A stretch of 24,683 nt of DNA, taken from IMG/VR virus record IMGVR_UViG_2512047041_000007, positions 1 through 24,683 of that record; one strand, given 5' to 3'. This document shows positions 1 through 24,683 of the stretch, piece by piece. A program made the translations under genes and the position numbers. Each line of letters begins with the position of its first letter. The first letter of the stretch is position 1. This DNA is from a virus (taxonomy: Duplodnaviria; Heunggongvirae; Uroviricota; Caudoviricetes). Under the pieces are notes generated by a model, which searched no databases, was not told the DNA's origin, and saw nothing but the letters and a program-made list of their open reading frames with translations.

Positions 1-219
1 TCAAAGAGAGAGCGCCACCTGTCCTGATTTCATTGGATGCGGCTGAACCGGATTTGACTCTTTTGGCGTTGCAATCGAACGAACAAAAGTTTCATGGGTA
101 ACAAAAGTATGGCTGCAGTTAATGTTCTGGCACTGGTTGTAACGCTCTTTGGTCAATGAAGATACCTGAAAACTGCTGCGAGTATGGGCGGCACTTCCAC
201 ACAGTGGGCAAATCATCAT
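1..219 (-). CDS. ogr: Ogr/B-family zinc-finger late-gene transcription activator (72 aa from the MMICPLCG start; window begins at its stop codon)
   Basis: ORF translation has the Cys4 pattern CPLC...CQNINC and the length of P2 Ogr; sits immediately downstream of gene D as in P2. Homology is from memory. The longer 83-aa ORF (start 252) is an alternative. Confidence 0.8.
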   Translation of the reverse strand: MMICPLCGSAAHTRSSFQVSSLTKERYNQCQNINCSHTFVTHETFVRSIATPKESNPVQPHPMKSGQVALSL

Positions 220-7289: not shown

Positions 7290-7856
7290 TCAGGGGGATT
7301 CATTGATCTTATTTGCCGGAAATTTTCTATAAATGGTAGAAACGCCTACATCAAAAATCAGTGCAATACGCTGTCTTGATTCTCCGGCCTCGAGTAAACG
7401 CCCAATCTGTGCCCACTGTTCGGTGGTCAACTTAGGACGGCGTCCACCTACTCTGCCTTTGGCACGAGCTGCAGCCAGCCCTGCCCTGGTACGTTCAACT
7501 ATCAGTTCGCGTTCCATTTCAGCCAGGGCACCCATGACATGAAAAAAGAAACGGCCCATTGGGGTACTGGTATCAATACTGTCAGTCAGGCTTCTGAAAT
7601 TCACACCACGCTGGCGCAACTCTTCTATCAGCGTAACAAGATGCCGCATACTGCGCCCCAACCTGTCCAGCTTCCAGACAACCAGCGTGTCTCCTGCCGA
7701 TAGTGTCCTGAGTAGTTTTTTCAGCCCCGGTCTGTCGGACTTAGTGCCACTGATTTTGTCCTCAAAAATCTGCTCACATCCCGCGCAGTTCAGTGCATTA
7801 CGTTGCAAATCGGTGTTCTGGTCATTTGTTGACACGCGTACATAGCCAATAAGCAT
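7290..7856 (-). CDS. Serine-recombinase DNA invertase (Hin/Gin/Cin/Pin family)
   Basis: Translation MLIGYVRVSTNDQNTDLQRNAL...GDTLVVWKLDRLGRS...GRFFFHVMGALAEMERELIVERT is near-identical in motif order to Hin/Gin, including the catalytic Ser in YVRVSTxDQ and a C-terminal HTH. Start taken at the third Met of the ORF. Confidence 0.9.
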   Translation of the reverse strand: MLIGYVRVSTNDQNTDLQRNALNCAGCEQIFEDKISGTKSDRPGLKKLLRTLSAGDTLVVWKLDRLGRSMRHLVTLIEELRQRGVNFRSLTDSIDTSTPMGRFFFHVMGALAEMERELIVERTRAGLAAARAKGRVGGRRPKLTTEQWAQIGRLLEAGESRQRIALIFDVGVSTIYRKFPANKINESP

Positions 7857-7883
7857 GATCATCCCCCTGAATAAAAACCGGAG

Positions 7884-8273
7884 ATGATGCCAGTTAGCTG
7901 TTACCTCTGCATTTTCTTAAACGTTGGTTTGGGAGAATTATCTCTGGCTGGCACTGCATCGGGTGTCATTGGCCTGAATGGGTATGTAACGATCCCGTTA
8001 ATTATTTCAGGTTCCCGGAGAACACTGATTATTCAGTGGGGGCAGGCGAGATTTGGTGGGTCTGGTGGTGAAGATGCCGGATATCTTAACGATTTTCCTT
8101 TTGCCTTTCCGTCAGCATGTTATGGAATGATAGTTAGTCATGTGGGGCATACACCTTCAGGCGCAGGAATCCTGTCGGCTTCTGCAATTACATCAAATCA
8201 GTTCCGCGGTTTTTCAAGCATAGCGACTGCTGTAAACGCTGTATTAGGTCGTTATATCGCTATAGGGGTGTAA
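7884..8273 (+). CDS. Alternative tail-fibre C-terminal variable segment, silent in this orientation
   Basis: ORF runs through the crossover site; from the GLGE motif onward it encodes a different C-terminus (LSLAGTASGVIGLNGY...). It has no independent N-terminal domain, so it would be expressed only as an H fusion after inversion. Confidence 0.55.
   Translation: MMPVSCYLCIFLNVGLGELSLAGTASGVIGLNGYVTIPLIISGSRRTLIIQWGQARFGGSGGEDAGYLNDFPFAFPSACYGMIVSHVGHTPSGAGILSASAITSNQFRGFSSIATAVNAVLGRYIAIGV
7912..7937. other. 26-bp invertase crossover site (hix/gix-like), proximal to the invertase gene
   Basis: ttttcttaaacg-tt-ggtttgggagaa: two imperfect 12-bp half-sites around a 2-bp core, same architecture as hixL; its reverse complement shares 14 contiguous bp with the site at 9775-9800. 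Confidence 0.65.
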
Positions 8274-8274
8274 T

Positions 8275-8712
8275 ATGTTTTATAGTCCATCTTTAAACAT
8301 TTTTGTGAATCCTGCACTTAAGGATGATTACATTAATGCAAATTCATGGCCAGATGATGCTCTGGCTGTCAGTGATGATGTTTATAATGAATTTGCAATC
8401 AATACGCCTCCAGATGACAAAATTCGTGTTGCAGGAAAAAATGGATTACCCACATGGGCACTAATACCTCCACCATCACATGAAGAACTTATTCAACAGG
8501 CAGAATCAGAAAGGCAATTATTGCTTAATCAGGCCAACGAATACATGAACAGTAAACAATGGCCCGGTAAAGCCGCTATTGGTCGTCTGAAAAGCGAGGA
8601 ACTGGCGCAATATAATTCGTGGCTGGATTATCTGGACGCACTGGAGCTAGTCGATACTACCGGTGCGCCAGATATTGAATGGCCTACGCCTCCGGCAGTT
8701 CAGGCCAGATGA
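8275..8712 (+). CDS. Alternative tail-fibre assembly chaperone (Tfa'), partner of the silent fibre tip
   Basis: 145-aa ORF starting 1 bp after the alternative fibre segment; C-terminus DTTGAPDIEWPTPP parallels the C-terminus of the minus-strand Tfa (DTSTAPDVIWPELP). Confidence 0.75.
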   Translation: MFYSPSLNIFVNPALKDDYINANSWPDDALAVSDDVYNEFAINTPPDDKIRVAGKNGLPTWALIPPPSHEELIQQAESERQLLLNQANEYMNSKQWPGKAAIGRLKSEELAQYNSWLDYLDALELVDTTGAPDIEWPTPPAVQAR

Positions 8713-9286
8713 CATCCGGCGCGGTGCTGGTATCTGTTGCCGCCACCGCGTCAATGTAATCCAGCACGGCGTTAAGTCGGGTTGTTTCTGCCTGCGTCAA
8801 CTTCCGTCCGGCCTGTAATTTCAGCTGAATCAGACTAATGGAAGCCATTGCTGCATCAATCAGTGACTGGCGCTGTGCTTCTGCCGCGTCTACTGCGGCA
8901 CTATGCTGTGCCTCAGTATCCGTCACCCATTTCTCACCATCCCATTTATCATATGGCGTTAACGGGGCGATAGTGGTTGTATTTTCAGGGTAATCACCCG
9001 GAGCTGTGATTTCTTTCGATTCTCCTGTTTCGGTGCTATAGATGATTTCACCGCGATGGTCTGGCACATATTCCCATGAGTTAAAATCTGCAGAACGGCA
9101 GATTGCATAACCAGCTTTATGTGTAACTGGTGCATCTAAACAAGAACATGCCGGGATACCGACGCCAACCGCAAGATATTCAGTTGATGTGGAAATATAT
9201 TCCCGCGTTTCACCATCATAATTATAAATGGTAATGTCTCCCGCTTTTATGGCAATGAGTTCGTTATTTAATACGGCTTTATTCAT
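8684..9286 (-). CDS. G: Tail-fibre assembly chaperone (gpG-like), expressed orientation
   Basis: 200-aa ORF immediately downstream of H with ATGA-type coupling; conserved Tfa C-terminal motif. Confidence 0.82.
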   Translation of the reverse strand: MNKAVLNNELIAIKAGDITIYNYDGETREYISTSTEYLAVGVGIPACSCLDAPVTHKAGYAICRSADFNSWEYVPDHRGEIIYSTETGESKEITAPGDYPENTTTIAPLTPYDKWDGEKWVTDTEAQHSAAVDAAEAQRQSLIDAAMASISLIQLKLQAGRKLTQAETTRLNAVLDYIDAVAATDTSTAPDVIWPELPEA

Positions 9287-15891: not shown

Positions 15892-16095
15892 TCAGTCCCA
15901 TAGCTGGACGGTCTGCACGGTGGTGGTTGTCGGAATGTCCGGCAGCTCCACCTGCAGCCCGTGAGGTAAAAAGGGGCCATATTCGGCAAGCCCCGGATTT
16001 GCCTTCAGTACCTGCTCCGTGACACCCTGCGTGCGCCCGTAATGACGCCAGCAAAGCGCGTCCACCGTGTCATACTGATGCGCACGCACTTTCAT
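15892..16095 (-). CDS. X: Tail protein X (LysM-like)
   Basis: 67-aa ORF, same length and position as P2 gpX between L and the holin. Confidence 0.8.
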   Translation of the reverse strand: MKVRAHQYDTVDALCWRHYGRTQGVTEQVLKANPGLAEYGPFLPHGLQVELPDIPTTTTVQTVQLWD

Positions 16096-16559
16096 CAGAT
16101 AAGCTCCACTGTGCAGTGCGGCGCGTCCTGTACCCGGCTGATGGCCCAGCGGGCGTCACGCCATAAATCACCGCTGGCTTCCGCCAGTTCCTCGCCCCGC
16201 TTCACACCGGATGCCGTGGCGTCATAGTCCTGGTAACGTTCGTTGAGCATGGCGCGTGCCCAGCAGTAAACCGCGTTGAAATAGTGCTGAATGCGCTCAC
16301 TTTTGCCGTCCAGCTGTTCCGCCGGAACCTCTGCCAGCGAGGCATACCCCAGCATCTGCTGGCATCTGCGAAACTCATACAGCTCTGCGTTGACCTCCGA
16401 AATTGCCGACAGCGCAACCTGCTTTAAACGCGGCTGCGTCACCGTACCGTCAGTGCGCATCACACTGCGGAACTCCGACAGATCCACATCAGGCCAGAAC
16501 GGCGTATTCCTGATGATTTCCGCCTGTTCCGGTGCCTGTTCTGGCGCAACAAACTTCAT
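16095..16559 (-). CDS. L: Head completion protein L
   Basis: P2 gpL-like; start chosen at the ATG preceded by GGAGA (MKFVAPEQ). The ORF extends to a GTG at 16622 that lacks a ribosome-binding site. Confidence 0.78.
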   Translation of the reverse strand: MKFVAPEQAPEQAEIIRNTPFWPDVDLSEFRSVMRTDGTVTQPRLKQVALSAISEVNAELYEFRRCQQMLGYASLAEVPAEQLDGKSERIQHYFNAVYCWARAMLNERYQDYDATASGVKRGEELAEASGDLWRDARWAISRVQDAPHCTVELI

Positions 16560-16654
16560 GCTGCTTTCTCCTGAGATAGAGGGCGGTGGACGGGGTTTTG
16601 ATGTGGCAGTGCCTTTCGCCACCCCGTGCCGCCCGTGCGCGGGGGCACGTTCTG

Positions 16655-17305
16655 TCAGCGGCTGTCATTGCGCAGTCTGCGCTCCAGCTGCTGTTTGTCT
16701 TTTTTCACGCCACAGCGGGGATCGAGCTGTAACGCATGGTTGAGATGATTAAGGGCGGAAGCCGGATTACTTTCACTCAGGACAGCGCCAATCGCTTTAT
16801 GCAGACGCGCCCGTGACTGGTCCGGCATGTCCAGACCGTCTGTCAGCTCCAGCGTCTGCAGCAACAGATCGACATCAAAGCCGGTAGTGGCAAGCATTGC
16901 GCTCTGTGCCGCGTCTGCCATTTCCTCTGCCAGCACGGTTTGCACATTGCGGTTACCCAGCGGCATCACCCAGCCATGACGCAGGGCATGACGCCCGATC
17001 TCCAGCGCCCCGGCATAATCTCCGGCATCAATGCGCCACAGCATCACGTACATCAGCACGTCATCCTGTTGAGCGCCTCCGGCAGCCAGAACACCCTCTG
17101 CCCAGGCGGCGTATTTCGGCAGCAGCTCCACCTTGATTTCCGCTTTTTTGACCGTGGACTGAACGCCCTTGAGACGGCGGCGATCTTCCGCCAGTTGCAG
17201 CAGCATCAGGTCATAGCCCGACGCGTGGCGAACGCTGCCGCCCTCACGGGCGGCCTGTTCAGCCTGAACGCGCAGGCGATGCTGCCGTGCGGGACTCAGG
17301 CTCAT
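16655..17305 (-). CDS. M: Terminase small (endonuclease) subunit M
   Basis: 216-aa ORF downstream of the capsid gene, P2 gpM-like. Confidence 0.82.
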   Translation of the reverse strand: MSLSPARQHRLRVQAEQAAREGGSVRHASGYDLMLLQLAEDRRRLKGVQSTVKKAEIKVELLPKYAAWAEGVLAAGGAQQDDVLMYVMLWRIDAGDYAGALEIGRHALRHGWVMPLGNRNVQTVLAEEMADAAQSAMLATTGFDVDLLLQTLELTDGLDMPDQSRARLHKAIGAVLSESNPASALNHLNHALQLDPRCGVKKDKQQLERRLRNDSR

Positions 17306-17308
17306 GAA

Positions 17309-18367
17309 TTACGCTCCGGTTTCTGCTGCGGCGGCGCTAAAATCGCCAATCTGGATGTTTTCCACCAGTGCAGCGCAGCGGTAGTCCTCAACCACATAGG
17401 CTTCGTTAACGGATTCAAAGTTTTCAATCCGGTCACGTTTCGGGTTGTCGATAACTGAACGGCGGCGGGTGTCTTCCTGCCAGTAAATGGACAGGTTATC
17501 CAGACGGGTGATCAGCAGTGCATTCGGCGGGAAGAACGGCGCACGCACGGCCTGCAGGCCACCCATGCGTTTCTGACTGATGATCATATCGGCAGCCAGT
17601 TTTTCACTGTTTTCCTGCTCTTTGTTGACCAGCGGGAAATACTTGTCAGACAGCAGTTCACGACCGCAAATCACCACCAGATCGTCATCGTCCTGGTAGA
17701 CCACGTCGATAAGCTCATTGACGGCATCCATCACCACAGCGTCCAGGTTGGCATATTCGCCACCTTTACCGACTTTCACCGCGCCCGGTGTGGTTTCACC
17801 GCCCGTGGTGGTGCTGCCCATAACGTGATCCGGTGCATCCTCACGGATTTTCTGCAGCCAGCCTTTGTTCACATCCTGCAGCAGCGGGTTTTCACTACGG
17901 TTGGAGGTTTTCGCACGCTTCACGCCGTTAAAGCCGATCATGATGCGGTCCAGTGCCTGACGTTTCACGATGGCGTCACGGATACGCACCTGGAAATCCT
18001 GAAACTTCGCCCACAGGTCCAGCTTCGCGTAGGTCAGTACCGTGTCAAAGTTGGTCTGCTCGCATTTATATTCCACATCGACCATCAGCGTCGGATCGAC
18101 AGGTTCACGCTCTTTCGCGGTGGTATCAGTGGTTCCGGCAATGGTGCTGCCAACTCCCAACCCCAGCAGCTGACCGGACTGCTCAGTCACTGGCGTGACG
18201 TTAATCAGCGTCAGGAAAGCGGCGGACTGCTGGATCTGGTCTTCCAATGTCTGCTGCACGGACGGCTCTACGGTGAACTTGCTGGACAGTTCTTCAACTG
18301 CCACACCGTTCAGACGCGCCAGTTGCTGCAGATAAGCGTTAAAAGCAAAGCGGGTATTCTTCTTCAT
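17309..18367 (-). CDS. N: Major capsid protein N
   Basis: 352-aa ORF; N-terminal TRFAFNAYL and internal GFNGVKRA/ISQKRMG blocks match the remembered P2 gpN. Confidence 0.92.
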   Translation of the reverse strand: MKKNTRFAFNAYLQQLARLNGVAVEELSSKFTVEPSVQQTLEDQIQQSAAFLTLINVTPVTEQSGQLLGLGVGSTIAGTTDTTAKEREPVDPTLMVDVEYKCEQTNFDTVLTYAKLDLWAKFQDFQVRIRDAIVKRQALDRIMIGFNGVKRAKTSNRSENPLLQDVNKGWLQKIREDAPDHVMGSTTTGGETTPGAVKVGKGGEYANLDAVVMDAVNELIDVVYQDDDDLVVICGRELLSDKYFPLVNKEQENSEKLAADMIISQKRMGGLQAVRAPFFPPNALLITRLDNLSIYWQEDTRRRSVIDNPKRDRIENFESVNEAYVVEDYRCAALVENIQIGDFSAAAAETGA

Positions 18368-18383: not shown

Positions 18384-19217
18384 TCAGCAATTGGTCAGAG
18401 TGTCAGCGGGGGCGTTACCGCCTGTTGCACGCTGGCGGTAGTCCTGGCGGCTGTCTTCATGGCTCAGCTTGTCCACCAGTTCGTTAAAGGCGGTCTGCTG
18501 TGCCTGCAGGGCAGTCTCCAGCTCAGACAGGCGTTCTTCCTGCTCAGACAGGGATTTTTCGGTGCGCGCACTCAGGTTCTGCTGCTCAGTGGCGACCAGT
18601 TCCACGGCCTTATGCACATCAGAGAACCGGGCGTCATCGGACTGCTCTTTTTTGGTGAACAGCGCCGTGACACGGGCAAACAGGGACGGTTTGTCATCCT
18701 GGATTTCTTCCAGTTCGATCACCGTTTCCTCTGCAGCGGTAAAAAGATTGGCGGGATTCTGCTTGCGGTTTGCCAGCGGGTTATGGGCTGCACTGGCGCT
18801 GAATGTCAGCATTTCAGTGCCCAGACTGGCAGGGTCATCAGTGGCAGCCAGGCCGACCAGGTAGGCTTTGCCCGTATCAGCGAACTTCGGGCTAACTTCC
18901 ATAGATGTGAATAATTTCTGGCCTTTTTTCACCAGTTCCACCAGGGACTCCGTTGGCTCAACGTCGGCATACAGCGCCATCTTGCCTGCCAGCGGACCTT
19001 CCTTGATTTCTTCAGCAAACAGCGCCGTCACCTTGCCGTAGCGGTTAAAGGTGCTGTCCGGCAGATAAGACTTGATGTGCTCAAGGTTAATCAGCGCGGT
19101 ATACACCGCCGGGTTGTAGCTGGCTGCCATCTGTTCCAGCCATTCACGCTGGATTTCGCGTCCGTCGGTGGTGGCACCTTCCACCCCGATGCGAAAACGC
19201 TTTGCTTTCACTGTCAT
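18384..19217 (-). CDS. O: Capsid scaffolding protein O
   Basis: 277-aa ORF, first gene of the O-N-M-L operon, divergent from P. Confidence 0.88.
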   Translation of the reverse strand: MTVKAKRFRIGVEGATTDGREIQREWLEQMAASYNPAVYTALINLEHIKSYLPDSTFNRYGKVTALFAEEIKEGPLAGKMALYADVEPTESLVELVKKGQKLFTSMEVSPKFADTGKAYLVGLAATDDPASLGTEMLTFSASAAHNPLANRKQNPANLFTAAEETVIELEEIQDDKPSLFARVTALFTKKEQSDDARFSDVHKAVELVATEQQNLSARTEKSLSEQEERLSELETALQAQQTAFNELVDKLSHEDSRQDYRQRATGGNAPADTLTNC

Positions 19218-19359: not shown

Positions 19360-21126
19360 ATGAACACCACACTGACACCCGCAGATCTCGATCCCCGTCG
19401 GCAGGCCATGCTGCTGTACTTTCAGGGATACCGCGTAGCCCGCATTGCTGAAATGCTGGGCGAGAAAGTTGCAACCGTTCACAGCTGGAAAAAACGCGAC
19501 AAGTGGGGTGACTATGGGCCGCTGGATCAGATGCAGCTCACCACCGCCGCACGCTACTGCCAGCTCATCATGAAGGAGCACAAAGAAGGGAAAGATTTCA
19601 AAGAGATTGACCTGCTGGCGCGCCAGTCGGAGCGCCACGCGCGGATCGGCAAGTTTAACAATGGCGGCAACGAAGCCGACTTAAACCCTAACGTCGCCAA
19701 CCGCAATAAAGGCCCACGCCGTCAGCCGGAAAAGAATGTTTTCACCGATGAGCAGATTGAGAAGCTGGAAGAAATCTTCCATTCCTCCATGTTCAACTAC
19801 CAGCGCCACTGGTGGGAAGCCGGAAAAACCAACCGCATCCGCAACCTGCTGAAGTCACGCCAGATCGGCGCGACCTTTTACTTTGCCCGTGAAGCCCTGA
19901 TTGACGCCCTGCTTACCGGACGTAACCAGATTTTCCTTTCCGCCAGCAAGGCACAGGCCCACGTCTTTAAGCAGTACATCATCGACTTCGCCAAAGAAGT
20001 GGGGGTGGAGTTGAAAGGCGATCCGATGGTGCTTCCTAACGGGGCCACGCTTTACTTCCTCGGCACCAATGCCCGCACGGCCCAGAGTTATCACGGCAAC
20101 CTGTATCTGGATGAATATTTCTGGATACCGAAATTCCAGGAGCTGCGCAAAGTGGCTTCCGGTATGGCTATTCACAAAAAATGGCGACAAACCTATTTTT
20201 CCACGCCATCCAGCCTGACACACAGTGCTTATCCGTTCTGGTCCGGTGCGCTGTTCAACCGTGGGCGCAACAAGGCCGACAAGGTGGACATCGACCTGTC
20301 CCACAGCAATCTGGCCCCCGGCCTGCTGTGCGCAGACGGGCAATACCGCCAGATAGTCACCGTGGAAGATGCGGTGCGCGGCGGCTGTAACCTGTTCGAC
20401 CTTGACCAGTTGCGCATGGAGTACAGCCCGGACGAATACCAGAACCTGCTGATGTGCGAGTTTGTGGACGATCTCGCGTCCGTATTTCCGCTCAGCGAGC
20501 TGCAGGCGTGCATGGTGGACAGCTGGGAAGTCTGGACCGACTTTCATGCACTGGCTCTGCGCCCGTTTGGCTGGCGCGAAGTGTGGATCGGTTATGACCC
20601 GGCAAAAGGTACGCAAAACGGCGACAGCGCCGGATGCGTGGTGGTGGCACCGCCAGCCGTGCCTGGTGGTAAGTTCCGCATTCTTGAGCGTCACCAGTGG
20701 CGCGGGATGGACTTCCGCGCCCAGGCTGACGCCATCAAAAAACTGACCGAACAGTACAACGTGACCTATATCGGTATCGACTCAACCGGCGTTGGTCACG
20801 GGGTTTATGAGAACGTGAAAGCGTTCTTTCCTGCCGTCCGGGAGTTTGTCTACAACCCCAATGTTAAAAACGCCCTGGTACTCAAGGCCTACGACATTAT
20901 CAGCCACCGCCGTCTGGAGTTTGACGCCGGGCACACCGACATTGCGCAGTCATTTATGGCAATCCGTCGCGCTACCACTGCCAGTGGCAACCGCCCGACC
21001 TATGAAGCCAGCCGCAGCGAAGAAGCCAGCCATGCCGATCTGGCCTGGGCAACAATGCACGCACTGTTTAACGAACCGCTGCAGGGCGAGTCCGCCAATA
21101 CCAGCAATATTGTGGAGATTTTTTGA
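19360..21126 (+). CDS. P: Terminase large (ATPase) subunit P
   Basis: 588-aa ORF, P2 gpP-like, followed by Q with a 4-bp overlap. Confidence 0.92.
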   Translation: MNTTLTPADLDPRRQAMLLYFQGYRVARIAEMLGEKVATVHSWKKRDKWGDYGPLDQMQLTTAARYCQLIMKEHKEGKDFKEIDLLARQSERHARIGKFNNGGNEADLNPNVANRNKGPRRQPEKNVFTDEQIEKLEEIFHSSMFNYQRHWWEAGKTNRIRNLLKSRQIGATFYFAREALIDALLTGRNQIFLSASKAQAHVFKQYIIDFAKEVGVELKGDPMVLPNGATLYFLGTNARTAQSYHGNLYLDEYFWIPKFQELRKVASGMAIHKKWRQTYFSTPSSLTHSAYPFWSGALFNRGRNKADKVDIDLSHSNLAPGLLCADGQYRQIVTVEDAVRGGCNLFDLDQLRMEYSPDEYQNLLMCEFVDDLASVFPLSELQACMVDSWEVWTDFHALALRPFGWREVWIGYDPAKGTQNGDSAGCVVVAPPAVPGGKFRILERHQWRGMDFRAQADAIKKLTEQYNVTYIGIDSTGVGHGVYENVKAFFPAVREFVYNPNVKNALVLKAYDIISHRRLEFDAGHTDIAQSFMAIRRATTASGNRPTYEASRSEEASHADLAWATMHALFNEPLQGESANTSNIVEIF

Positions 21127-22160
21127 TGGGAAAGAGTAAGAAGAACCGCGCTGCGTCGACGAAACAGATCCAGCATAAAAGCCAGACTTCAGCCGAAGCA
21201 TTCAGCTTCGGTGATCCCGTTCCTGTTCTGGACCGCCGCGAACTGCTGGACTATGTGGAATGCGTACAGATGGAGTGTTGGTACGAGCCACCCGTAAGTT
21301 TTGACGGACTGGCGCGCACCTTCCGGGCTGCCGTGCATCACAGTTCCCCGATTGCAGTAAAGTGCAACATTCTGACCAGTACCTATATCCCTCATCCGCT
21401 GCTCAGCCAACAGGCTTTTTCGCGTTTTGTACAGGACTATCTGGTATTTGGTAACGCCTACCTGGAGAAACGCACGAACCGATTCGGTGAAGTTATCGCC
21501 CTTGAGCCTGCGCTGGCAAAATACACCCGACGCGGGTTAGACCTGGATACCTACTGGTTTGTGCAATACGGTATGACAACCCAGCCGTATCAGTTCACGA
21601 AAGGCAGCATTTTTCAGCTGATGGAACCGGACATCAACCAGGAGATCTACGGCCTGCCCGGCTATCTTTCTGCCATCCCATCCGCTTTGCTCAACGAGTC
21701 CGCCACGCTGTTCCGCCGCAAGTATTACATTAACGGCAGTCATGCCGGCTTCATCATGTACATGACCGATGCCGCGCAGAACCAGGAGGATGTGAACAAC
21801 CTCCGCAACGCAATGAAAAGCGCCAAAGGTCCGGGTAACTTCCGCAATCTGTTTATGTACTCGCCTAATGGTAAAAAAGACGGACTTCAGATTATCCCGT
21901 TGTCAGAAGTCGCAGCGAAGGATGAATTTCTGAATATCAAAAATGTTAGTCGCGATGACATGATGGCAGCACACCGCGTGCCGCCACAGATGATGGGGAT
22001 AATGCCAAATAATGTTGGGGGGTTTGGGGATGTGGAGAAGGCAAGTAATGTATTTGTACGCAATGAACTAATACCATTGCAAAAAAGATTTGAAGAGTTA
22101 AATGTTTGGTTAAAAGAAAAAGTGATACAGTTCGAAGAATATAAACTTCATTCAAATTAG
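21123..22160 (+). CDS. Q: Portal protein Q
   Basis: 345-aa ORF, P2 gpQ-like in size and position; the last 60 or so codons are markedly AT-rich. Confidence 0.9.
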   Translation: MMGKSKKNRAASTKQIQHKSQTSAEAFSFGDPVPVLDRRELLDYVECVQMECWYEPPVSFDGLARTFRAAVHHSSPIAVKCNILTSTYIPHPLLSQQAFSRFVQDYLVFGNAYLEKRTNRFGEVIALEPALAKYTRRGLDLDTYWFVQYGMTTQPYQFTKGSIFQLMEPDINQEIYGLPGYLSAIPSALLNESATLFRRKYYINGSHAGFIMYMTDAAQNQEDVNNLRNAMKSAKGPGNFRNLFMYSPNGKKDGLQIIPLSEVAAKDEFLNIKNVSRDDMMAAHRVPPQMMGIMPNNVGGFGDVEKASNVFVRNELIPLQKRFEELNVWLKEKVIQFEEYKLHSN

Positions 22161-22185: not shown

Positions 22186-22289
22186 AGAACCTTTATCGCC
22201 ATTTTAGATAAAAAGCAAAAAATGGATCAGTAATATGAACCGCCCCGGGAATCCTGGAGACTAAACTTCCTGAGAAAGAGGTAAACAGG

Positions 22290-22616
22290 ATGACTAAAAA
22301 TACTCGTTTTTCCCCCGAAGTCCGTCAACGGGCAGTCCGTATGGTTCTGGAAAGTCAGAGCGAATATGACTCACAATGGGCGACAATTTGTTCCATTGCT
22401 CCAAAGATTGGCTGTACGCCGGAGACTCTGCGTGTCTGGGTTCGCCAGCATGAGCGGGATACCGGGGGCGGTGATGGAGGGCTCACCACCGCTGAACGTC
22501 AGCGTCTGAAAGAGCTGGAACGTGAAAATCGTGAACTGCGCCGCAGTAACGATATCCTTCGCCAGGCTTCCGCTTATTTTGCGAAGGCGGAGTTCGACCG
22601 CCTCTGGAAAAAATGA
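22290..22616 (+). CDS. IS3-family transposase OrfA (HTH/leucine-zipper subunit)
   Basis: 108 aa; ends at an A6 run (tgg aaa aaa tga) where OrfB begins in the -1 frame. Confidence 0.9.
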
Positions 22617-23503
22617 TGCCACTGCTGGATAAGCTGCGTGAGCAGTACGGGGTCGGACCGCTATGCAGCGAACTGCATATTGCCCCGTCAACGTATTACC
22701 ACTGTCAGCAACAGCGACATCATCCGGATAAACGCAGTGCCCGTGCGCAGCGCGATGACTGGCTGAAGAAAGAGATACAGCGCGTATACGATGAAAATCA
22801 CAAGGTATACGGTGTGCGTAAAGTCTGGCGTCAGTTGTTACGGGAAGGTATCAGAGTGGCCAGATGCACTGTGGCACGTCTCATGGCGGTTATGGGACTT
22901 GCCGGTGTTCTCCGGGGTAAAAAGGTCCGTACGACCATCAGCCGGAAAGCCGTTGCCGCAGGCGACCGCGTAAACCGTCAGTTCGTGGCAGAACGACCTG
23001 ACCAGCTGTGGGTGGCTGATTTTACTTACGTCAGCACATGGCGGGGCTTCGTCTATGTGGCGTTCATCATTGATGTGTTTGCCGGATACATCGTGGGGTG
23101 GCGGGTCTCATCGTCCATGGAAACGACATTCGTGCTGGATGCACTGGAGCAGGCGTTATGGGCCCGTCGACCGTCCGGCACGGTCCATCACAGTGATAAA
23201 GGTTCTCAGTATGTATCGCTGGCCTACACACAGCGGCTTAAGGAAGCCGGATTACTGGCATCAACAGGAAGTACAGGCGACTCGTATGACAACGCGATGG
23301 CGGAGAGCATCAATGGTCTTTACAAAGCGGAGGTAATACACCGTAAGAGCTGGAAAAACCGTGCAGAAGTGGAACTGGCCACACTCACGTGGGTGGACTG
23401 GTATAACAATCGACGATTGCTGGAAAGGCTGGGCCATACTCCTCCGGCAGAAGCAGAAAAAGCTTATTATGCTTCCATCGGAAACGATGATCTGGCAGCC
23501 TGA
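22613..23503 (+). CDS. IS3-family transposase OrfB (DDE catalytic domain)
   Basis: 296 aa with the integrase-like DDE region (WVADFTY...HSDKGSQY...E); probably expressed as an OrfAB fusion by -1 frameshifting. Confidence 0.9.
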
Positions 23504-23505
23504 GT

Positions 23506-23709
23506 TCACAGATAAAACACTCTCCAGGAAACCCGGGGCGGTTCAGTTAATAAATGAGGTTGAGATGGGTTCAGCTTGTTCCGCAGAATCTGCACATTCA
23601 TGCCAGCACGTTCTGCCAGTTGCACCAGATTGTGGCGCAGTGCGAATGCACGACAGGCTTCATCAAAATGTGGATGTTTGGAAACTTGGTAATCAAACAT
23701 GGTTTTCAA
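23506..23709 (-). pseudogene. cII: 186-type cII gene truncated by the IS insertion (54 native codons, remainder read from the IS inverted repeat)
   Basis: N-terminus [45 protein letters not shown] matches the remembered 186 CII HTH region; the native sequence stops at 23546 where the IS right end begins. Confidence 0.72.
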
Positions 23710-23764
23710 CTCCGAACTTATCGCAAAATCGAACTCAGCGTCTTATTGCGAAAATAGACGTCTA

Positions 23765-23968
23765 TTAAGCAGACAAAGCATCAACAGTCAGAGCAGCCAG
23801 GTTAATCATTACCTTTTCACGTTTTTTGTCTTTACGAAGATGATGACGAGGTAGTCGGCCATCAGCCAACATGTCGTTAATCGTATCAATAGAAAGGCCT
23901 GTCAGTTCGCTATAACGTTCGATTGTGACATGTGGTGTATTCAGAGTAATTGAAATGTTAGGTGTCAT
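23765..23968 (-). CDS. apl: Apl-like excisionase / repressor of the lysogenic promoter (Cox/Apl family)
   Basis: 67-aa ORF upstream of cII and divergent from cI, arranged as in the 186 switch; small basic HTH protein. Confidence 0.78.
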
Positions 23969-24057
23969 AAGGCAACATTCCTTCTAGATATGGCTTGTGG
24001 CGAGCCGTTGTTTGTCGTGATTAGTAGTGAAGGCTCCAAAAGAACACTTCTGGCTCA

Positions 24058-24086
24058 ACTTTAAGATCGCTTTTGGAATCTGTCAA
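24058..24086 (-). promoter_or_regulatory. Candidate lytic promoter pR (sigma70) driving apl-cII
   Basis: On the minus strand: -35 TTGACA (plus 24081-24086), 17-bp spacer, -10 TAAAGT (plus 24058-24063); flanked by direct repeats ttttgga that could be operator half-sites. Confidence 0.45.
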
Positions 24087-24113
24087 CGAATTTTGGATTT
24101 CTTTGGAGGACTT

Positions 24114-24683
24114 GTGGATTTCAATAGCGGCGGTAAGAAAGCCATAGAACGTTTAGTTGAAGCATATGGGTTCGGTACCCGTCAGGCTCTCTGTGATCAT
24201 TTAGGTGTTTCTAAGAGCACCATGGCAACGCGCTATATGCGTGATATTTTTCCAGCAGATTGGGTAATCCAGTGCGCCCTTGAAACGGGCACCTCGCTTA
24301 ATTGGCTAACAACAGGGCATGGTTCAAAGCAAGCATCAGCAAATACAAATACTATAGAAGTAGAAAAATATTTATTGTCTGATGGAGCATTGCAGAAAGA
24401 CGGTTTTTATATTTTTGATAAGGGATTTCTACCCTCTACGTTTAAAAAACCTTTTGTCATCACAGATAACAATTCTGAATTTATTTGTGATAAAGAATTT
24501 GATGATATACGTGATGGTAAATGGGTAATAAGTATTGATGGCGAAATAACGATCCGTGACATTACTCGTTTACCCGGTGGAAGAATCTTCGTCGAGGGTG
24601 GAAACAGAGCCTTCGAATGCAAGATTGAAGACATTGAAATAATTGGTAAAATTATAAGTTTAACAGTCAAGTATGTTAAATAG
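24114..24683 (+). CDS. cI: 186-type CI immunity repressor
   Basis: C-terminal region ICDKEFDDIRDGKWVISIDGEITIRDITRLPGGRIFVEGGNRAFEC parallels the remembered 186 CI. GTG start at 24114 is preceded by GGAGGA and gives about 189 aa; the ORF stays open upstream to a GTG at 24027. Confidence 0.75.
   Translation: MDFNSGGKKAIERLVEAYGFGTRQALCDHLGVSKSTMATRYMRDIFPADWVIQCALETGTSLNWLTTGHGSKQASANTNTIEVEKYLLSDGALQKDGFYIFDKGFLPSTFKKPFVITDNNSEFICDKEFDDIRDGKWVISIDGEITIRDITRLPGGRIFVEGGNRAFECKIEDIEIIGKIISLTVKYVK

Follow-up and report, generated by a model that had tools for sequence, protein, structure and literature searches.

A 186-type lysis/lysogeny switch, probably surviving as an insertion sequence-deletion remnant, in a P2-family prophage of Escherichia coli N32

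The right end of the window analyzed here (the whole stretch of DNA, 24,683 nucleotides) is, with high confidence, a lysis/lysogeny switch of the 186 regulatory type that belongs to a prophage of the Peduoviridae (P2 family) and now persists as the remnant of a deletion caused next to an insertion sequence (IS). The window sequence is contained at 100% identity in the chromosome of E. coli strain N32 (NZ_CM165895.1), a CSF isolate. It extends from the stop codon of a gene encoding a late activator of the Ogr/B type to the stop codon of cI (24683), and the stretch between the activator gene and the right-hand part carries a complete set of tail, lysis, and head genes of the P2 family. At the right end, the PGAP annotation lists a portal protein, an IS3-family transposase, a "phage regulatory CII family protein (incomplete)", a hypothetical protein, and a "phage repressor protein CI". 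The identities of the genes, their order and orientation, the truncation of cII, and the deletion itself are all observed, the deletion by comparison with intact relatives, among them the S56 prophage. The features are collected in Table 1.

A preliminary description of this DNA had reported that apl and cII run divergently from cI, an arrangement that was read as the switch of phage 186 rather than the C/cox switch of P2. All these features are present, cI being encoded on the plus strand and the apl-like gene and cII on the minus strand. The assignment to the 186 type is also borne out by the domains of the repressor, by its match to the crystal structure of 186 CI, and by the presence of a CII gene. 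Coliphage 186 (Eganvirus), with its cI, pR-pL, apl, cII, and pE elements and its Tum antirepressor, shares gene order and orientation with N32, and the N32 region is a known kind of system, a probably heteroimmune member of the well-known family of 186-type switches.

Table 1. Coordinates of the features of the switch and its surroundings in the window
Feature	Positions	Strand	Evidence
Ogr/B-type late activator gene	4-219	-	PF04606 (5e-22); 54% to 186 B, 51% to P2 Ogr
Portal gene (P2 Q / 186 W homologue), last late gene before the IS	21123-22160	+	tblastn, 64% to 186 W, 60% to P2 Q; PGAP
IS3-family insertion sequence, 1310 bp, OrfA/OrfB with frameshift, at the deletion junction	22236-23545	+	Inverted repeats; Pfam; PGAP
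cII pseudogene, the first 51 of 169 codons and 2 nt more, joined to the end of the IS	23546-23700	-	BLASTP; PF06892; junction with S56
Candidate CII-binding inverted repeat, ATGTTTG (23674-23680) and CAAACAT (23694-23700)	23674-23700		186 annotation
apl-like gene, 67 aa, Cox/Apl-type excisionase-regulator, first gene after pR	23765-23968	-	phrog_575; position; fold
Predicted lysogenic promoter pL, TTGAAA (23950-23955), 17 nt, CAACAT (23973-23978), start near 23985	23950-23978	+	Homology to 186 pL
Candidate Apl operator zone, GT(G/T)-centred direct repeats every 10 bp (23997, 24007, 24017, 24027)	23991-24030		Conservation between N32 and 813R9
Predicted lytic promoter pR, TTGACA (24086-24081), 17 nt, TAAAGT (24063-24058), start near 24051	24058-24086	-	Consensus scan
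Candidate CI operators TTTTGGAAT, TTTTGGATT, and TTGTGGATT (at 24071, 24091, and 24112)	24071-24120	+	TTKTGGAWT pattern; 186 position
Shine-Dalgarno GGAGG for cI, 4 nt before GTG 24114	24105-24109	+	Direct reading; TTGGAG kept in IAL7250
cI immunity repressor, 189 aa, GTG start, N-terminal HTH and C-terminal oligomerisation domain	24114-24683	+	Pfam; PDB; BLASTP; RefSeq WP_001346406.1

The repressor, the Apl-like protein, and the CII stump

The cI gene encodes a protein that matches PF07022 (2.5e-31) and PF16452 (3.4e-29), both of them Pfam families built on 186-type repressors. Over residues 10-183 it also matches the crystal structure of 186 CI (PDB 2FJR; E 1.5e-31), so that the two repressors share the same two-domain fold family, and they are 33% identical along their full length. 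The repressor C of P2, which has some 99 aa and is unrelated to CI, gave a BLASTP E-value of 1.0 across 17 residues, i.e., no significant similarity. The preliminary description had stated that a P2 C-like repressor would speak against its reading, and what the alignments revealed is a 186 CI-like protein. The C-terminus of CI is formed by PF16452 in place of the S24 domain of the self-cleaving repressors of the Lambda/LexA type. The peptidase S24 autocleavage domain (PF00717) scored 16.7 bits in CI, under the cut-off of 23.3 bits, and no stretch of the protein passed.

The cI reading frame is open from either GTG 24027 or GTG 24114 to the TAG at 24683, and its start had been considered ambiguous for this reason. 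Both GTG codons do lie in the open frame, but the ambiguity can be resolved in silico, and on comparative grounds the start codon of cI is GTG 24114. In the heteroimmune relative IAL7250, an ATG aligns exactly with this codon behind the conserved TTGGAG, and the frame upstream of the cI start closes after 11 codons. The RefSeq coordinates of cI (WP_001346406.1) also start at 24114. We have discarded GTG 24027, which has no Shine-Dalgarno sequence, whose ORF would cross pR, and whose extension is not open in IAL7250. The GTG start is one of the differences between the cI gene of N32 and that of 186.

The first gene of the leftward transcript encodes a 67-aa protein that belongs to the Cox/Apl class. 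It matches phrog_575, described as "Cox-like excisionase and repressor" (2.6e-29), which is also matched by 186 Apl (2.8e-9) and by P2 Cox (4.1e-7); no Pfam domain was found in it. The hhalign comparison, which covers the N-terminal strand and the HTH, was weak both ways, with a probability of 31% against 186 Apl and 44% against P2 Cox, and BLASTP was weak against both proteins and did not discriminate between the two. The AlphaFold model of the protein, of moderate confidence (pLDDT 62), has the order strand-helix-helix-strand-strand, and the top PDB folds retrieved with it were those of excisionases, namely Pukovnik Xis (4J2N) and P2 Cox (4LHF), each with a probability of at least 0.99 but with weak E-values (0.03-0.13). 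A search of the PDB by sequence returned spurious matches to designed repeat proteins and was set aside. The name apl is based on position, PHROG membership, and fold, and not on specific similarity to 186 Apl, which has 87 aa and can barely be aligned with the N32 protein. The "Protein ORFa in retron Ec67" is 95% identical to the Apl-like protein of N32, and we presume that the element carrying this retron is 186-like. The Ec67 element differs from the N32 window, in which neither a retron nor a reverse transcriptase is present.

The cII gene had been correctly placed on the minus strand by the preliminary description, but it lies outside the 23765-24683 interval assigned there to the switch, and it is a stump of 51 codons. 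Read-through from the stump into the IS adds 12 aa. The part that is kept shares 80% identity with 186 CII (residues 1-54) and 98% with the intact 169-aa CII of S56, and it matches PF06892 (1.9e-16) at positions 1-46 of the 146 of the profile. A 186-type region includes an intact cII, which is found in S56 and not in N32. The P2 record differs from both in carrying no annotation of cII, pE, or tum.

Predicted promoters and candidate operators

The near-consensus promoter TTGACA-17-TAAAGT aimed at apl, already noticed in the preliminary description, is present on the minus strand and matches the consensus at 10 of the 12 positions. Matches of at least 10/12 are no commoner than chance in the whole 24.7-kb window (three, vs. 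2.5 in shuffled sequences), and about 0.014 would be expected per 145-bp cI-apl interval. The -35 hexamer of pR and a TAnnnT -10 are found at the same aligned position in the heteroimmune relatives 813R9 and IAL7250.

The lysogenic promoter pL had been described as not confidently identifiable, but the alignment with 186 yields an in silico candidate. By homology, pL would be TTGAAA-17-CAACAT at 23950-23978, reading through pR into cI. Its columns align with those of the annotated 186 pL (TTGCGA-17-CATGAT), with an equal 17-nt spacer. The offsets from the ATG of apl are identical to those of 186, the -10 being located at 5 nt upstream and the -35 at 13 nt inside apl, and both hexamers are identical in N32, IAL7250, and 813R9 when these heteroimmune relatives are aligned. 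Since pL is predicted at the exact 186 offsets, pR and pL would be placed face-to-face, as in 186. The gap between the -10 boxes of pR and pL is 79 bp vs. 76 bp in 186, and the cI-apl spacer measures 145 nt vs. 129 nt. Calculated from the -10 positions, the predicted convergent transcripts would overlap by about 65 bp. In P2-like phages, face-to-face promoters have been described in both switch types, with a separation of 40-60 bp (PMC7498355), to which the N32 value comes close. A terminator-like hairpin at 23990-24008 (an 8-pair stem with 4 G-C pairs), located in the leader crossed by both transcripts, was considered as well and was assigned to the zone of the Apl sites instead of being taken for a terminator.

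Three TTKTGGAWT repeats with a spacing of 20-21 bp extend from the -35 of pR up to the cI start, and they are positioned like the three CI sites of 186 at pR. The pattern has four matches in the window (0.9 expected), and three of the four are at pR. These repeats might be the CI operators, an assignment to which we give low confidence. The three-repeat layout was not seen in the heteroimmune relatives IAL7250 and 813R9, and an inspection by eye and by pattern of the FL/FR-like positions and of the region upstream of B/ogr revealed no convincing counterpart. The 186 operator ATTCAC-N5-GTGAAT is absent. Upstream of the Ogr/B gene, a TATCAT -10 aligns with the -10 of 186 pB, and a lone TTGTGAATT is found near this B/ogr -10. 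Given that the N32 CI is 33% identical to 186 CI and that the promoter and operator sequences are unrelated to those of 186, the phage is probably heteroimmune.

The candidate zone of Apl operators sits between the predicted start sites of pL and pR. This block is kept between N32 and 813R9, whose Apl proteins are 95% identical and whose CI proteins are just 57% identical. The Apl operators of 186 are 6-bp direct repeats, 10-11 bp apart, located between pR and pL (PMC7498355), and the GT(G/T) repeats of N32 would fit such a direct-repeat layout. On the int side, the att arm has two copies of ACCACCA spaced by 10 bp.

In the candidate CII-binding site, the two half-sites are 20 bp apart centre to centre, and their sequence and spacing are the same as those of the CII site annotated in 186 at pE (23435-23462). 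This inverted repeat lies inside conserved cII codons, and its conservation may reflect coding alone. A good -10 hexamer for pE at the 186 spacing was sought in 23701-23764 and was not found.

The IS junction, the missing early region, and the late module

The terminal inverted repeats of the IS begin TGAACCGCCCCGGG, its products match HTH_Tnp_1 and rve in Pfam, and PGAP annotates it as an IS3 family transposase with programmed frameshift and pseudoknot. Judged from its ends, we take this 1310-bp element to be IS629/IS1203-like. The flanks of the IS are ATA and GTT, i.e., there is no target duplication, as expected for an IS located at a deletion junction. Its left end is found 75 bp after the portal stop codon, and its right end adjoins cII after 51 codons and 2 nt, a junction that could be resolved to the base by comparison with S56.

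The S56 prophage encodes an identical CI protein, and its switch is 99.65% identical to that of N32, but it contains about 7.4 kb between cII and the portal gene. This interval comprises the rest of cII, fil, a DUF5347 gene, DUF2732, a TraR/DksA gene, dam, the gene of replication endonuclease A, and small and cargo genes, the cargo genes being located between A and the portal gene. None of the genes of this interval, the replication gene A and fil included, was found in the window, and neither was a tum homologue. The Fil protein of S56 is 82% identical to that of 186, and its Int is 56% identical to 186 Int and 35% identical to P2 Int. The comparison with S56 indicates that an IS-associated deletion, overlooked in the preliminary description, has removed the early, replication, and SOS-antirepressor genes (about 7.4 kb), and the switch adjoins the portal gene because of this deletion and not because of modular recombination. 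The truncated cII and the deleted early operon also set N32 apart from 186. A search for cos with the P2 19-mer, allowing up to 3-4 mismatches, did not find it in the window, in S56, or in phage 500465-1, so that this result does not speak for a loss of cos in N32.

In the sister isolate AF57, the junction of portal gene and IS is the same, and so is its place in the chromosome (LysR'/yneK/marC), but the IS adjoins a truncated int. Taken together, N32 and AF57 carry nested deletions from one fixed IS end, that of AF57 being the deeper one, into int. In a set of 5,426 complete genomes, the portal-IS-cII' junction occurs in N32 alone. The record of N32 bears the label whole-genome shotgun and has about 29 copies of this IS.

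The preliminary description had also pointed to an SOS-controlled, tum-like antirepressor as something to be looked for elsewhere in the genome. No such gene is present in the window, and its cassette is absent, at megablast sensitivity, from the N32 chromosome record and present in S56. A tblastn search with 186 Tum found no homologue in the window or in the S56 locus, and no LexA box occurs in the window. Within 29 kb of S56 there is one CTGT-N8-ACAG box (CTGTTTATATTTACAG), which is located between gene A and an ORF of 62 aa, in the same orientation, i.e., at the position of p95-tum in 186. This ORF matches phrog_698 (1.2e-37), phrog_8554, and phrog_1993, the three families that are also matched by residues 1-61 of 186 Tum. 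Intact relatives appear, from these matches, to carry a stand-alone Tum-N-like gene under SOS control, in contrast with the Tum-DinI fusion of 186. A chimeric megablast query that joins the N32 switch and the S56 orf62 region matched one place in N32, and two places in S56 and in 10 of the 11 other genomes among the matches listed; therefore, the orf62 cassette is absent from the N32 chromosome at megablast sensitivity. The LexA-box orf62 cassette thus adds to the full cII, fil, dam, A, and the cargo genes that S56 keeps and N32 has lost.

The late module belongs to the Wadgaonvirus-like Peduoviridae. Its DNA is 96-98% identical to that of Escherichia phage 500465-1 (genus Wadgaonvirus) and Klebsiella phage Kp4849-2, an identity at which it is shared with S56 too. 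The presence of a 186-type switch next to a P2-type late module had been interpreted as the sign of a mosaic element, and a recent recombination of a 186-type early/immunity region onto a P2-type late module would indeed account for the foreign composition of cI, whose unusually AT-rich C-terminal domain has 32.7% GC vs. 54.5% in the late genes, and for a best phage match of 75% in the immunity region when the late genes reach 96-98%. Recombination between regulatory and structural regions is, moreover, documented in P2-like phages (PMC3448106). However, we consider this origin unlikely, given that the late proteins show about 40-70% amino acid identity to both 186 and P2 by tblastn with no consistent preference, that the late genes of 186 are themselves labelled P2 homologues in its record, that switch and portal gene touch at the junction of an IS deletion, and that this pairing of switch and late genes recurs in E. 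coli genomes by the hundreds. Of the complete E. coli genomes, 72 carry the switch at an identity of at least 99%, and 624 cover at least 80% of it. Two main regulatory types are known in P2-like phages, and the 186 type is common in E. coli prophages (PMC3448106, Nilsson et al. 2011); together with the 624 genomes and the P2-homologous late genes of 186, this makes the combination found in N32 a standard one. The part of the mosaic claim that stands is a weaker one. The exchange of immunity cassettes among close relatives with near-identical late modules is real, as illustrated by IAL7250, whose identity to N32 is 96.6% across the late genes but 80.5% across the immunity region.

The deletion reading has been weighed against two other accounts of the junction. 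The junction between portal, IS, and cII' could be an assembly artefact that arose when a pair of IS copies was merged into one and the early region between them was left out, as might be suspected from a shotgun-labelled record with some 29 matching places for the IS and from the uniqueness of the junction. Yet AF57 shares the left junction and its chromosomal site but has another, deeper deletion, a pattern to be expected of real IS-adjacent deletions, and at megablast sensitivity the Tum-like region is missing from the whole N32 chromosome record; an artefact is, in consequence, quite improbable. The idea that the switch and the prophage are intact and inducible, the IS being a simple insertion, deserves even less credit. 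It agrees with the integrity of cI, apl, pR, pL, and the whole late cluster with B/ogr, but not with a cII that keeps 51 of its 169 codons, with the lack of a target duplication, with the failure to find gene A, fil, and a tum homologue in the window, or with the loss of the ~7.4-kb stretch from cII to portal of the intact relatives. As for the type of the switch, a P2-type C/Cox switch in which a large ORF has been misread has next to no chance of being right. P2 (Peduovirus) belongs to the same family and also has convergent lytic and lysogenic promoters and a first lytic gene of the Cox/Apl type. In favour of this reading, hhalign rates the Apl-like protein slightly nearer to P2 Cox, and promoters stand face to face in either type of switch (PMC7498355). 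Against it, the repressor contains the two domains of 186 CI and does not significantly match P2 C, and a cII follows apl. The P2-type reading was already refuted by the repressor.

Proposed mechanism and meaning of the remnant

We infer the mechanism of the N32 switch from phage 186, and promoter activity, operator identities, and CI function are predictions for N32. CI, as a two-domain oligomerising repressor, would bind the operators over pR and turn off the leftward transcript of apl and then cII. The silencing of pR would free the weak convergent pL from transcriptional interference, and the pL transcript, starting face to face at about 65 bp from the pR start, would cross pR and reach cI and, beyond the window, int. 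Apl, a small protein of the Xis/Cox fold, would bind the direct repeats between the start sites and at att, acting both as excisionase and as a brake on the two promoters. In the intact phage, lysogeny would be established through the activation of pE by CII acting at the ATGTTTG/CAAACAT site, and the LexA-controlled Tum-like antirepressor would inactivate CI after DNA damage.

The deletion running from the IS has taken everything up to codon 52 of cII, i.e., the C-terminus of CII, fil, the replication genes including A, dam, and the Tum-like cassette. With these genes lost, the N32 element is therefore unable to replicate, to be induced by the SOS response, or to establish lysogeny via CII. 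The expression of cI from pL plausibly still works and would keep pR repressed and the cell immune to homoimmune phages, and the switch remnant can probably confer immunity only. Some observations run against this best explanation: nothing corresponding to the candidate CI operators was seen at pB, at the FL/FR-like positions, or in the relatives; the Apl-like protein is marginally similar in sequence to 186 Apl, and equally so to P2 Cox; and pE has no recognizable -10.

The significance of these results beyond the correct annotation of the region is little. The combination of a 186-type switch and P2-family late genes turns out to be how a large group of enterobacterial prophages is normally organized and does not point to mosaicism, and the start of cI has been fixed, and pR and pL predicted, for the immunity type of N32. 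The comparison of N32 and AF57 illustrates a step-wise decay of prophages via IS-adjacent deletions from one fixed IS end. As a tentative proposal, which we hold possible rather than probable, the remnant may represent a retained, non-inducible immunity cassette (pL-cI, pR, and apl, devoid of CII, the Tum-like antirepressor, and the replication genes) beside a complete late cluster with its Ogr/B activator. If this were true, the remnant would give the host permanent protection from homoimmune Peduoviridae, and it might still serve satellites or co-resident phages as a source of capsids and tails. The intact members of the lineage, in turn, may be induced by the 62-aa LexA-controlled, stand-alone homologue of the Tum N-terminus, which would represent a minimal Tum antirepressor module, and this gene with its LexA box could help to define the minimal antirepressor domain acting on 186-type CI.

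The IS element and the chromosomal flanks of the prophage

The insertion element next to the stump of cII (cII') lacks a target duplication, being flanked by the bases ATA and GTT. In isolate AF57 (L008) the left IS junction is the same as in E. coli N32, but there the IS abuts a truncated int, so that the deletions are nested and run from one IS end. Each terminus of the window falls exactly on a stop codon, that of the late activator gene Ogr/B (1-3, minus strand) at one and that of cI (24681-24683, plus strand) at the other.

On the int side, the phage arm of N32 (L002, around 19090-19110) is the same as that of the intact relative S56 (L006, around 16650), the two being identical up to ...CATAAATGG. 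Past this point, N32 and AF57 run into a truncated LysR-family gene, yneK, and marC, whereas S56, 813R9, and IAL7250 run into rcdA and ybjJ past the int-side arm. These differing flanks mean that either the integration site differs or the chromosome has been rearranged. The ISEc53 transposase and ClbS/DfsB-family genes of N32 are absent from the corresponding position of S56.

Features located in the window and in the related loci
Feature	Locus	Coordinates	Strand	Remarks
Hin/Cin-type serine invertase	Window	7290-7862	-	PF00239 and HTH_7
Tail-fibre C-terminus and tail-fibre assembly genes	Window	7884-8712 and 8684-9286	+ and -	Opposite orientations
IS3-family element	Window	22236-23545		1310 bp; between portal gene and cII'
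LexA box CTGTTTATATTTACAG and 62-aa ORF	S56 (L006)	8997-9244		Box upstream of ORF, both downstream of gene A
ISEc53 transposase gene and ClbS/DfsB-family gene	N32 (L002)	16073-17830		Between int and small ORF downstream of cI

Composition and sites of the cI switch region

The GC content is 32.7% in the part of cI that encodes the C-terminal domain (window 24354-24683) and likewise low in apl (40.7%) and in the spacer (42.1%); the late genes have 54.5%. An antisense promoter-like match (TTAACA-17-TATAAT, 11/12; 24651-24679, minus strand), which may be spurious, falls where the cI 3' end is very rich in AT. A GATC (Dam) site lies in the spacer of the predicted lytic promoter pR, shortly upstream of the -10 (24065-24068). 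Three heteroimmune relatives retain it as GATCGC (alignment A1), and a Dam methylase is encoded by intact relatives.

A Tum-like gene in relatives and the tail-fibre segment

PHROGs 698, 8554, and 1993 are common to the 62-aa ORF of S56 and to the N-terminal part of Tum, the LexA-controlled SOS antirepressor of phage 186. In phage 500465-1 (L007, 4381-5013) a DinI-like gene of its own comes after the homologue of this ORF, an arrangement that resembles a split Tum.

In the late region, the serine invertase gene adjoins the oppositely oriented tail-fibre genes, and the whole segment (7290-9286) looks like an invertible host-range segment.
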